From positions 47,554,001-47,618,000 of the forward strand of contig OZ024750.1 of NCBI GenBank assembly GCA_964016885.1: 64,000 bases of DNA. Direction: 5' to 3'. Positions within the stretch are counted from its first letter, which is position 1; every line of letters starts with the position of its first letter. Source of the stretch: Eledone cirrhosa. Lineage: Eukaryota. The translations under genes were made by a program, and so were the position numbers. Of this stretch, positions 2,045-32,947 are shown piece after piece. The notes beneath the pieces are model-generated. The model did not search any database. It worked only from the letters and a program-made list of their open reading frames with translations, and was not told the origin of the DNA.

Positions 2045-2180
2045 AAGGAACTTCTACAGGACTAGTACTGTTTCATTCAGATGAAATCTTCAGGAAGATT
2101 TCATCTGAATGAAACAGTACTAGTCCTGTAGAAGTTCCTTACATACTGTGGTTATCCCCGACTCAACCCGGGACCTACGT
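2045..2180 (+). mobile_element. 96-bp palindrome (axis 2092|2093, inside the hammerhead core) plus tail
   Basis: Arms perfectly complementary except the central a/g; (T)GAAGA-TTTCATCTGAAT-GAAAC-AGTACTA-GTC; tail homologous to 32760-32805 (-) and 29810-29850. Confidence 0.88.
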
Positions 2181-2409
2181 ATATATATATATATATATAT
2201 ATATATATATGTATGTTCATATATATATATATATATATATATATTTATATATATATATATATATGTATGTTTATATATATATATATATATATATATATAT
2301 ATATATATATATATATATATATATATATATATATATGTATGTATGTTTATATATATATATATGTATGTTTATATATATATATATGTATGTTTATATATAT
2401 ATATATATA

Positions 2410-2481
2410 TAGGAACCAGTAAGACCCCGACAGCTGAGGTGCGTTATGGTCCACCTGGTTCCTTACCACATTTCCTTCGTT
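2410..2481 (+). mobile_element. Collapsed fold-back cassette of the 53101-53311 family
   Basis: ATAGGA..GTAAGACCCCGACAGCTGAG matches 53180-53209; GTGCGTTATGG..CCTTCG is the reverse complement of 53104-53144. Confidence 0.7.
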
Positions 2482-2604
2482 ATATATATATATATATATA
2501 TATATATATATATATACATATGATGAGGTTACATTTTATTTGTTGTGATTCAACAAGATTAAACACTATCAAGCGAATTTCAACCGTTGAGGTTGTCTTT
2601 TTTC

Positions 2605-2735
2605 AGGGTATGTCAATATTTATTGATAAAACTAATGTGTGTTTTATATAATGAAAGCGCACCATAATTTACCTTGACATATATATAATAAAATAATTAT
2701 GGTTGTATAAATATAGTTTACATTTATTAATATAT
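2605..2735 (+). mobile_element. Degenerate pLTR fragment (58680-58826 family), hammerhead decayed
   Basis: AGGGTATGTCAATATTTA...GAAAGCGCACCATAATTTA...TATGGTTGTATAAATATAGTT resembles 58683-58812. Confidence 0.6.
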
Positions 2736-3076
2736 AGTATATATATATATATATATATATATATATATATGTATTCTAAAGAGCAAAAGGCACGACTGTA
2801 CATATTCTGTCAGTGTTGTAATGTTGCTAAAACACACATCTATTATACATAATGTATGCTATGTAAATTTAAATATATAGTTACATAAGTAGCAACATGA
2901 TAAACACTATTCCGTATTTATATAGATTGCTTATATAAACAGAAAAGCTATGCAAATTTACAATTTCACACTGCATTGCTTTGTCATCTAGAAACGCCTT
3001 TAGTTATAAATGTTTAGTGAGAAATAGTCTACAGAAACTTGTTAAAGCAGGTCCTCTCGTTAAAATAGTTGATACA

Positions 3077-3265
3077 ATAATTGTTTCTACTTTAGGCACA
3101 AGGCCAGTAATTACCCAGTGCATTACTGGTACTTTTATTTTATCGACCCCGTAAGGATGAAATGCAAAGTCAACCTCGGCGGGATGTGAACTCAGATCGT
3201 AAAGGGACGTAACTATGCTGGAAAGCATGGCGTCCGACCCTCTACCGATACTGCCAATCCACCGC
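3077..3265 (-). mobile_element. tRNA-derived SINE (family A)
   Basis: A box TGGCAGTATCGG, B-box-like GAGTTCACATCC, body CTTTGCATTTCATCCTTACGGGGTCGATAAAAT; multi-copy in window. Confidence 0.9.
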
Positions 3266-29540: not shown

Positions 29541-29771
29541 CAGAGCAAACAGCACGGACACGCTATCTATTATTTTTGAAAAGCATTTAGAAATGCGCAA
29601 CCGGTAAAAACTTAAAAGCTTAAAACCACAACTGAATACTAACCCATACAATCACTAATACTCTTTTATTCCTAATTAAACCATTTTTCAACTGTGAACA
29701 ATTTGTCAGCATTTTCTATTCCGTTTACCAATATATAATAACTTGTGTGTTACACCTCTATTCTTTTAACT
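29541..29771 (+). mobile_element. Solo pLTR fragment with U3-A8 hammerhead (29573-29610); related copy at 1858-1935 (-)
   Basis: TTT-TTGAAAA-GCAT TTAGAA ATGC-G(C)AA-CCGG-TA-AAA; CTGTGAACAATTTGTCA..CCGTTTACCAATAT is mirrored at 1856-1900. Confidence 0.65.
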
Positions 29772-30352
29772 ATATATATATATAAAGGGTTCTACACTTT
29801 GTATTGTCTAACTTACTTACTGTGATTACCACCGATTAATCCCGGGGTACATTTATATATATAAATATATATATGAAAACATTCAGGAACCGGACGTCGG
29901 AGATCCGGCCGTTTCGGGCGCTAGATCTTTATTTTTCTTTCTTTATTTTATTTTTGAACCTAATGTATTCATACAAATTAAGAATATTTGAATTCTCTCT
30001 TGGTAGTGTGTGTGCGCGACTGACTATGTTAACAACTTCAGGTCAATAGGACGAGTCACCCATTTCCTCTTGATTTTCATCCTGTTGGTCACTTCCTCGC
30101 CACCAGGATATTTGATATTTCAAGACTTTTAGCAGGAAGAAACAAGCCATTTAAACAAAGGTACACCCACCTCCGATCATTCACCACTCCCAGCCACCCC
30201 TCCTCCCGAAAAAACAAACAAACAAGATAAAATTTAAGATTTTAGTCTGTCTGTTCATATATGGATTATATCTCTACCACAAACTATGTGATATATATAT
30301 ATATATATATATATATATATATATATATATATATATATATATATATGTATGT

Positions 30353-30483
30353 ATATTTATTAAAATAACATATTAAGGTTTAAACAAAGAATCGCTGCTT
30401 TAACGCTTAACGGGATCTTCTGTTTCGGATAATACCCTTAAAGGTGAAAGCAGCGATTCTTTGCTTACAATTTTAATAAATAT
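30353..30483. mobile_element. Fold-back cassette; same family ends at 20738-20778 and 57484-57546
   Basis: AAAGAATCGCTGCTTT/AAAGCAGCGATTCTTT and flanking complementarity. Confidence 0.7.
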
Positions 30484-30763
30484 TTGCTCTGTGGTTCTTA
30501 TATATTTGATATATATTTACCCCTATCGAGCCGTCTGCGTAATTTAGTCTTCTCATTTGGTGTAAGGCCCAGTTACTTTAGGTTAACCAAAGTGAGCACA
30601 AATGCAGGGTTTCTAGTACGTATAGTGTTGTTGTACTAAAATAATATCAAATAATATTAATAATAAAAGGACGAGCTTTTGATTCCAGAATCGAACACGA
30701 TCTATACAGATCGAGCTGCCTAGAACTAATCAATAGGGACAGGCTCATCTAACCTGCATAAAT

Positions 30764-30955
30764 ATAATTGTTTCTACTATTGGTACAAGGCCAGCAATTA
30801 ACCATTGTATTACTGGTACGTTATTTTATCGATCCAGTAAGGATGAAAGGTAATGTTAACCTCGGCGTGATTTGAACTCAGACCGTAGAGGGACGTAACT
30901 ATGCTGGAAAGCATGGTGTCCGACCCTCTACCGATACTGCCATTTCACCTACGCC
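30764..30955 (-). mobile_element. SINE family A
   Basis: Near-full copy; TAAATATAAT on both flanks. Confidence 0.88.
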
Positions 30956-32759
30956 TCAATAAATATAATGAAGATATAACACAATTTTTGTTATTACTAT
31001 ATATATATATATATATTGATATATATGTATATATATATACGTATATATATATATACATATATATATATATATATATATATATATATATATTGATATATAT
31101 GTATATATACGTATATATATATATATATATATATATATATATATATATATATATATACATATATATACATATATATATATATATATACATATATATACAT
31201 ATATATATATATATATATATACATATATATATATATATACATATATATATATATATATATATATATATATATATATATATATATATATATATATATATAT
31301 ATATATATATATATATATGCATATACGCAAGATGTAAGCAGAGATAAATAAACGAGACACTATATTAACTACAATAACTACAAATATATATATTGTACGA
31401 TTGATGTTGTAAGAAAATAGTTGATATATTTCCGACGATAGTTCTCATAACATAGACTCGTGTTTGTGTAGATGGAAAATAGTTTGTTTTGACGTAGAGT
31501 ATGGCGTTATTTATTTAAAAAATACATATTTAAAGCATCGAAAATCATATGGAAATGGAAAAATGTTACATTTATTCTCTGGACAAGTTCATGTCACTTT
31601 TCGTATTCTTTCTCTATGCACACACATTATATATATGTGTCTGTGTGTGTGTGTGTATATATATATATATATATATATATATATATATATATATATATGT
31701 GTGTGTGTGTGTGTGTGTGTGTGTGCGTGTGTGTGTGTGTGTGTTCGTGTGCGTGCATGTTTATATTTGTATATATGTGTTTACATTTGTTTACATTTGT
31801 TTATATTTGTGTATGTTTGTGCGCGCACACACACATACATACACAGATATATATATACATGTGTGTGTGTGTATATAAATATATACTTGTTTGTCTGTAT
31901 TTGTGTATTTATGTCTTACAGATTTTACATGCGCATATGTGTGTGCTTGTATATTTATTTTAGAGACACTGATTTTATATATACTTCGTATCAAGTTTGT
32001 TTTTCAGGCACCAAAGGAAAAGGAAGATAGTCATAAATAAATAAATGAATGAACGTTAAAAATAATAAATTTATAATACAAACCATATGATGGATAGGCC
32101 AACAGAAATACAAACAAATAGAAGGATAGATGTATAATGAATAAAAATAATCCCAACCAACTCTATCCAGACATGTATACTTACATAGTCAGACCAGACG
32201 AATTAGTATATCGGATAAAACCTCCACTAAGATAGTAGTTTATAAATAGTAAACATTCCGAAACCGCTTACTGCATGACACGGACTTAGCCATAACTAAT
32301 GATAAGATGTTAAAACCGTGTAAATAACATAAAGCTGACTTTATAACGTACAGCATTTACAGACATCTTCCGGTTTACTTTTTATCTTTTTTTTGCTGAT
32401 GTTTACCTTTGTTCTTCTTGATAATATTTGATTGTTTTAATTGTTGATTTGTGTCTTTATATATATATATATATATATACATATATACATACATATATAT
32501 ATATATATATATATATATATATATATATATATATATATATATATATATATATATATATATATATATATATATATATATATATATATATATTTATATATAT
32601 ATATATATATATATATTTATATATATATATATATATATATATATATATATATATATATATATATATATATATATGTGTGTGTGTGTATAAAGCCATATAC
32701 ACACCCGTACACACACACACACATACATATGTATATATATATACATATATATATATATA

Positions 32760-32947
32760 TACGTTATTCCGGGTTGAATCGGAGGTAACCACAGTAAGTA
32801 AGGTACACAATACATAGCATAGTATAAAGGTTTTAATATAGATGAGATTCTACAGGACTAGAACTGTTTCATTCTTCAGAAATCATCATGATGATTTCTG
32901 AAGAATGAAACAGTTCTAGTCCTGTAGAATCTCATCTATATTAAAAC
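32760..32947 (-). mobile_element. Perfect 118-bp palindrome 32830-32947 (axis TCA|TGA in the hammerhead core) plus tail 32760-32829
   Basis: No mismatch seen between arms; TGATGA-TTTCTGAAGAAT-GAAAC-AGTTCTA-GTC-CTGTAG; same family as 2045-2180. Confidence 0.9.

Follow-up and report, generated by a model that had tools for sequence, protein, structure and literature searches.

Head-to-head palindromes of a likely Penelope-like repeat in Eledone cirrhosa turn round inside a putative hammerhead ribozyme

Introduction

Penelope-like elements (PLEs), including Naiads, which lack canonical hammerheads, have been described as forming inverted, 5'-truncated copies next to their pseudo-long terminal repeats (pLTRs), with a tail on one side only and with microsatellites as targets (PMC8557442). 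Palindromes at inverted PLE junctions have been read as the product of self-priming (PMC3846280). Here we examine two palindromes that carry a hammerhead motif, copy 1 and copy 2, in a stretch of 64,000 nucleotides from Eledone cirrhosa (contig OZ024750.1 of assembly GCA_964016885.1, positions 47,554,001 to 47,618,000), which we call the window. We argue, with a probability of about 0.6, that these palindromes were turned round by microhomology-guided or blunt joining of truncated complementary DNAs (cDNAs), and not by a stall of the reverse transcriptase (RT).

Minimal hammerheads of the dimer type are known from pLTRs, together with a U3-A8 variant and opposite-strand pairs; dual motifs on opposite strands, 100-700 bp apart, have been noted, and a G10.1-C11.1 pair is a common, but not absolute, feature (PMC4209133). 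Tandem hammerhead-bearing non-LTR retrozymes have been linked to PLE pLTRs (bioRxiv 10.64898/2026.07.22.740005). Poseidon has been studied in vitro: two RT start sites define the tail, both strands are extended, and a dimer is predicted; ribozyme mutants leave insertion size unchanged, and templates that are longer at their 5' end yield longer products (PMC11167929). Outside the PLEs, snap-back of the cDNA is a known class of R2 5' junction (PMC11371274, PMC11331408), and one 5' module of the hepatitis delta virus (HDV) type gave truncations of which most lay no more than 50 nt from the 5' end (PMC11331408). The origin of the inverted and tandem PLE structures, as well as the role of the ribozyme, have been stated as open questions (PMC8557442, PMC11167929). 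The passages of PMC6431247 that we consulted add nothing on junctions, and our literature searches, whose scope excluded most subscription papers and supplements, returned no paper that places the inversion junctions of PLEs relative to the ribozyme.

Results

Structure of the two palindromes

The window is AT-rich and animal-like, with abundant (TA)n and (CA)n microsatellites. A generic inverted-repeat search was swamped by (TA)n; a palindrome scan gave the arm lengths of the two copies. Both palindromes proposed by an earlier, sequence-only reading of the window proved real: copy 1 (2045-2140) has perfect 47-bp arms (47/47) around a 2-nt unpaired centre at 2092-2093, and copy 2 (32830-32947) has perfect 59-bp arms (59/59) with no spacer. 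The tail and the 27-nt motif said to be common to the two copies were also recovered, the motif occurring four times in the window and never in 100 shuffles. Each copy bears the tail on one arm only, and each sits inside (TA)n, flanks that would mask any target-site duplication; the whole insertions measure 140-190 nt, and the tail ~62-67 nt.

In copy 1, the tail-less arm (2034-2093, minus strand) carries an intact type I hammerhead motif and extends natively for ~11 nt past 2045, to ~2034. The tail-bearing arm (2094-2179, plus strand) begins at G5 and shows a ~40-nt gap relative to copy 2, followed by the distal tail; the gap, which lies at a CCTT direct repeat in this right arm only, explains the short tail. 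In copy 2, the tail (32762-32829, minus strand) adjoins a left arm that runs from U4 to the tail-less end (32830-32888, minus strand), whereas the right arm (32889-32947, plus strand) has no tail. A third family member (29786-29850, plus strand) is a tail-only fragment, identical to copy 2 in 55 of 71 columns.

Arms are identical within each copy, while the two copies agree at only 34 of 41 positions of the core, which argues that the hairpins arose separately and from different templates. Judged by these comparisons, the two hairpins are of independent origin, as had been proposed from differences mirrored in both arms of each copy; the mirroring holds within the paired arms, but breaks down at the one-sided gap and the native extension of copy 1. 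A shared axis had been claimed as well. The geometric axis does fall at C3|U4 in both copies, but the junctions differ in form. At the axis of copy 1 (2092-2093), the minus-strand C3-U4 is kept as a 2-nt loop closed by CTTC/GAAG, that is, as a 4-bp stem with a minimal loop; in copy 2, U4 abuts U4 bluntly, with C3 absent from both arms. The centre of copy 1 is likely a 4-bp microhomology, if the native CTTC is deduced from stem I pairing. Both palindromes are real head-to-head stubs that likely come from a Penelope-like element, of which the hammerhead-bearing repeat is likely the pLTR.

The hammerhead motif

A type I descriptor matched the minus-strand arm of copy 1 (CTGAAGA core, stem II, GAAA, stem III with a palindromic loop, and TA^). 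This match puts C3 at 2093 and U4 at 2092, and it predicts a cut between 2055 and 2054. Copy 2 has the same motif without C3 on both arms, with U4 at 32888 and 32889; a native C3 is present in reads of the family. Helix III is short (3 bp plus ACTAGT in copy 1, or CTAG in copy 2), as is the AU-rich stem II, which consists of a U.U followed by three pairs and lacks the G10.1-C11.1 closing pair. In stem I, the native upstream flank pairs over 6 bp with the sequence after the predicted cut site. Since copy 2 lacks C3 in both arms, and copy 1 has a single core with a stem I of only 4 bp, the inverted products would be dead.

A relaxed hammerhead scan of the window yielded 10 matches, against 0-2 in 10 shuffles; Rfam hammerhead families gave no window match at the gathering score, and a metagenome pattern scan gave none. 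RNA folding of six ribozyme stretches produced no significant z-score, monomer folds of the putative ribozyme failing to surpass those of shuffled sequence (z 0.79 and -0.35), a result that neither supports nor refutes a stable barrier to the RT.

Ends and junctions across the family

Four of six public runs of the species were aligned at 80% likeness to 32762-32905, a reference made up of the tail, one arm and 17 nt beyond the axis. X1 and X2 consist of contigs from one sample, and X4 and X5 of raw reads from restriction site-associated DNA sequencing (RAD-seq) of two other samples; paired counts refer to the two contig runs or the two read runs. With 6295 and 6864 contigs and 5564 and 6073 reads aligned, the copy 2 family is high-copy. 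Its outer ends lie at 32830 and at 32763-69, both giving way to (TA)n-like sequence (at the tail-less end, 32830, in 346 and 454 reads). The reads cover the core at 79% and 74% of the depth found on stem III. Loose ends at 32888 were found in 205 and 220 contigs and in 1527 and 1652 reads, and their consensus starts G-GAATCT, the complement of C3 plus the stem I 5' strand. Most molecules continue natively beyond U4 into C3 and stem I. Depth on the reference past the axis (32892-96) was 0.33, 0.40, 0.64 and 0.62% of that at 32882-86 in the four runs, and just 6 and 7 reads covered 32892 away from their ends, against a core depth of ~3076 and 3238. The loop II variants that separate copies 1 and 2 are polymorphisms found family-wide, mostly in non-palindromic molecules.

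Fifteen of 19 family joints are listed, 12 of the 15 being strand-switching, and the following statements concern those listed. All 12 opposite-strand joints have one end at 32871-75 or 32885-89. The largest class, at 50-57%, is asymmetric and joins the stem II 3' strand to the core (32873-74 x 32885-89; 12/21 and 13/25 contigs, 142/256 and 203/404 reads, 17/34 and 15/27 read starts). Symmetric 32888/32888 joints make up 7/21 and 8/25 contigs, 46/256 and 53/404 reads, and 6/34 and 6/27 read starts. Because folds further upstream are reported alike, this class is an upper bound for C3|U4, at most 18-33% of the strand-switch junctions; we rejected the idea that all its members are exact C3|U4 joints. 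Nonetheless, C3|U4 does recur, as 5 and 7 contigs contain a copy-1-like crossing (32892 T>A). There is no 32874/32874 class, and no joint ends at 32876-32884 or 32830-32870. In the contig runs, palindromes cause breaks and distinct junctions are over-represented; among X4 minus-strand reads at 32887, 32 of 47 carry one variant, from ~4 starts.

Head-to-tail joints, in which 20-25 native letters connect 32888 to 32831-36, were present in all four runs. The resulting tandem unit of 77-79 nt contains one whole hammerhead and is possibly a very small retrozyme-like repeat. These joints return repeatedly to one 5' boundary, which lies 21-22 nt upstream of U4 and is represented in X4 by 15, 4 and 3 read starts. 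In dimer joints, the shorter side measures at most 57 nt, and only single tandem joints were seen, the 150-nt reads of the RAD-seq runs limiting the array length that can be read out.

A model of joined, truncated cDNAs

We propose that the element's protein would nick a (TA)n target on both of its strands, and that two cDNAs would be primed from two internal start sites, one yielding a product with the tail and the other a product without it. Both would end short, either inside the ribozyme or a few tens of nucleotides beyond it. Their 3' ends could then anneal head to head, or one could snap back, at matches of 2-6 bp between the stem I 5' strand and the stem II 3' strand, the stem I 3' strand, or the core GAAG/GA; alternatively, the ends may be joined blunt. 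C3|U4 would be one recurrent, minority outcome of such end joining.

A cDNA ending 5 nt past U4 can pair over 4 bp exactly at 32874 (stem II 3' strand, 15-nt loop), a site to which the largest of the listed junction classes corresponds. If the cDNA ends 7 nt past U4, it can form 6 bp with the stem I 3' strand at 32850. C3|U4 itself offers the copy 2 subfamily 2 bp, and that of copy 1 a deduced 4 bp. A joint at 32850 would go unlisted, its arm being too short or too diverged; compared by eye, the contig consensus after G-GAATCT gives a hint of being nearer to the 32850 site than to the native flank (agreement 0.44-0.45). As the outer end of each arm is one of the two family ends, two opposite-strand primed cDNAs would explain the one-sided tail better than the fold-back of a single cDNA, in keeping with Poseidon in vitro (PMC11167929). 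That the hammerhead, the cleavage of which is dispensable in vitro, itself guides the junction, its stems or an in-trans stem I fixing a few discrete cDNA joining points, is a tentative addition that we think doubtful; if true, inverted pLTR junctions would be a genome-wide footprint of ribozyme structure at integration, and C3|U4 would be among two or three hot spots.

A number of points weigh against joining guided by microhomology. The junction of copy 2 is blunt and shows no microhomology to the native flank, so that microhomology cannot account for it; the 4-bp hairpin of copy 1 is marginal as DNA (-0.2 kcal/mol); and matches of 2-4 bp are frequent by chance in this AT-rich arm. The 4-bp overlap at the 32874/32888 joints was deduced from the reference and not from junction letters. 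Moreover, the junction clusters coincide with alignment edges, 32874 bordering the hypervariable loop II and 32888 ending the native reference, and some 32874/32888 joints may therefore be clipped copy-1-type junctions, although the lack of a listed 32874/32874 class counts against pure clipping. X1 and X2, being a single sample, are not independent, the RAD-seq reads represent few independent loci, and 86 further variant rows and 368 loose-end rows exist beyond those listed. Finally, the window contains no open reading frame (ORF) linked to the family of copies 1 and 2.

Competing explanations

The sequence-only reading had suggested that the folded ribozyme stalls the RT and so sets the turn-round point, with a sharp peak of axes at C3|U4. 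The joints do cluster inside the ribozyme, with C3|U4 recurring among them, but a sharp, dominant peak there is not supported, the asymmetric class being larger than the symmetric one. The stall itself was not borne out, as most molecules pass U4 natively and depth past the axis is only 0.3-0.6% of that on the core. A ribozyme folded in cis was rejected as a block at U4, since by then all strands except the stem I 5' strand would already have been copied. In a modified form, the RT would pause before C3 where the stem I 5' strand is paired in trans, or with an upstream tandem or dimer unit, and the stalled ends would be joined. We regard this version as unlikely, though it has points in its favor: two copies sharing an axis would be expected by chance in 1-2.5% of cases if axes were uniform over 40-100 positions, copy 2 is blunt at U4|U4, 32888/32888 joints recur (with six read starts in each RAD-seq run), as do the copy-1-like crossings, the 77-79-nt tandem units would close stem I just 5' of C3, and PLE ribozymes have been proposed to work as dimers (PMC4209133). 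It has to contend, however, with the native run-on of 1527 and 1652 reads past U4, the handful of reads that span 32892 internally, and a 32888/32888 class that may hold axes further upstream (both = 0 in four runs). In addition, the barrier would be a mere 6-bp AU-rich helix, three of nine inverted pairs in the window fold at least 500 nt upstream, and the Poseidon RT passes through its own ribozyme in vitro (PMC11167929).

A slightly less probable alternative attributes the pattern to geometry and ascertainment: with an RT that would start ~60-125 nt downstream of the core, on a template whose usual beginning would be ~21 nt upstream of the core, any short inversion would lie in or near the ribozyme, and the two copies would share an exact axis by chance within a broad cluster. 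In its favor, the tandem joints reuse that 5' boundary; the axes of other families are scattered (-33, -42, -63, -520 and -566 relative to U4), short palindromes exist that have no detectable core (59936-60078, 19547-19758), and both junction clusters lie at alignment edges. Yet the listed joints leave 32876-32884 and 32830-32870 empty, even though arms of at least 20 nt, to ~32850-32870, should be reportable, and pure clipping would tend to produce the 32874/32874 class that is missing among them. Much less credible is the view that DNA-level strand switching or deletion of the spacer perfected or re-centred the inserted palindromes, or that one ancestral palindrome spread and its arms were homogenised. 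The zero-spacer centre of copy 2 is hard to derive from one folding cDNA, and in young copies the two arms are 100% identical. Homogenisation is not general, however, as the window's older palindromes combine long spacers with arms that have diverged. Amplification of one ancestral palindrome as a unit, which the sequence-only reading had named as its counter-hypothesis, was rejected, given loop II variants that are polymorphic family-wide, mostly in non-palindromic molecules, and junctions of differing form. Perfect palindromes without a spacer are a recognised type of artefact, and X1 and X2 possibly come from the same sample as the window. An assembly or library fold-back artefact is nevertheless highly improbable, and an assembly artefact was rejected: opposite-strand joints recur at several read starts in X4 and X5, two other samples, the tail is one-sided, the flanks differ, and other palindromes have diverged arms.

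Other inverted pairs and repeats in the window

We counted nine ribozyme-bearing inverted pairs in the window. Their axes lie at 0 (twice), inside the ribozyme (53245), and at ~-33 (axis 14053), -42 (20979), -63 (1136), ~-520 (~58210), -566 (~5819) and -850 or beyond (approximately) relative to U4. The axes that the sequence-only reading had placed in or shortly upstream of the ribozyme are positioned as stated, but that selection omits the pairs at ~5819, ~58210 and 8231-9249/11989-12854.

The element at 53100-53311 (family F) contains a palindrome (53183-53308) with its axis at 53245|53246, 23 nt 5' of GAAA; the core is absent and the tail lies to the left. A head-to-head join of two pieces of this family occurs at 2413-2480, where the antisense piece ends in loop III and the sense piece begins in the tail; the pieces do not overlap and hence form no palindrome, which fits two independent cDNAs. 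Two pairs are counter-examples to an axis near the ribozyme. One (family G, 5172-6191) has cores at 5253 (minus) and 6110 (plus) and an axis at ~5819, 566 nt upstream; it has a CCGAAGA core and a long stem II, and its right arm has a ~270-nt internal deletion. The other (family C, 57590-58830) has its axis near 58210, ~520 nt upstream of U4 (58732). The latter stretch belongs to an AT-rich hammerhead family with a long stem II, represented by at least five diverged copies (also 1687-1830, 2578-2733, 18236-18330 and 998-1274), two of which have an 8-bp stem I.

At 8231-12854 (family B), inverted repeats with a U3-A8 hammerhead variant surround broken RT and GIY-YIG frames (~9505-11380), and the junction of the pair 8231-9249/11989-12854 is ~850 nt or more upstream of the ribozyme. 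This family, with its U3-A8 covariant core (TTGAAAA), is found also at 7761-7968 and 13857-14188, and two short copies both start ~36-40 nt upstream of U4. Broken RT/GIY-YIG-like frames, at ~9505-11380 (plus) and 22915-23830 (minus), are weakly supported: Pfam searches of six ORF fragments gave sub-threshold matches only, RVT_1 in the frames at 9505-11380 falling below the cut-off (E 0.013), and atlas leads were at 0.91-0.96. A second PLE-like remnant (22662-23968, minus strand) has a GIY-YIG-like frame and is interrupted by (TA)n, and its 3' region recurs at 45533-45878. Native flanks in families B, C, E and F were absent or too diverged for a comparison of microhomology.

Five palindromes (19547-19758, 27951-28191, 30385-30463, 45416-45457 and 59936-60078), in each of which one arm was checked, have no canonical core followed by GAAA, and this core may have been lost or never present; several of the five carry a one-sided extension beside (TA)n. 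A ~190-nt interspersed repeat resembling a short interspersed element (SINE) is located at 3069-3265 and in ~12 other places, including 13419, 16998, 20239, 24057, 26084, 30764, 35083, 38136, 50175, 55205 and 58975, with 75-98% identity among copies.

Discussion

The palindrome structure described here is of an already known PLE kind, and a single stall nucleotide was not upheld; what is gained is thus mechanistic detail and not a new system. With thousands of copies, and with discrete junction classes inside a 60-nt ribozyme, the stall, microhomology and geometry models can be tested from the assembly.

In L1 twin priming, an inverted element copy likewise appears at the 5' junction, and L1 inversions join non-overlapping parts of one RNA; unlike these, copies 1 and 2 have arms that are both drawn from one and the same sequence, each arm terminating at a different end of the family. 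R2 snap-back offers a similar parallel, as it places an inverted element copy, generated from the cDNA 3' end, at the 5' junction (PMC11371274). The non-LTR retrozymes of animals resemble the copy 2 family in consisting of non-coding tandem units, each with a type I hammerhead (bioRxiv 10.64898/2026.07.22.740005), but the window copies are inverted rather than tandem, and the reads contain single tandem joints only.

The minimal PLE hammerhead matches the family motif in its CUGANGA core, GAAA, UH cut site, palindromic helix III suited to dimers, and stem I of 4-6 bp (PMC4209133). It differs in stem II, which in the family has 3 bp, is AU-rich, is closed by U.U and lacks G10.1-C11.1, and cleavage in the family is putative. 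The architecture matches the insertion units of endonuclease-bearing (EN+) PLEs (Penelope/Poseidon, Neptune and Naiad), which share with copies 1 and 2 the head-to-head arrangement of truncated copies, the one-sided tail, the microsatellite target and the palindrome at the inverted junction, and with the copy 2 family the partial, pseudo-LTR-forming tandems (PMC8557442, PMC3846280). In contrast to those units, for which a tail of 30-40 nt is described, the tail of the copy 2 family is ~62-67 nt long, and copies 1 and 2 span only 140-190 nt, contain no ORF, and have their junction inside the ribozyme.

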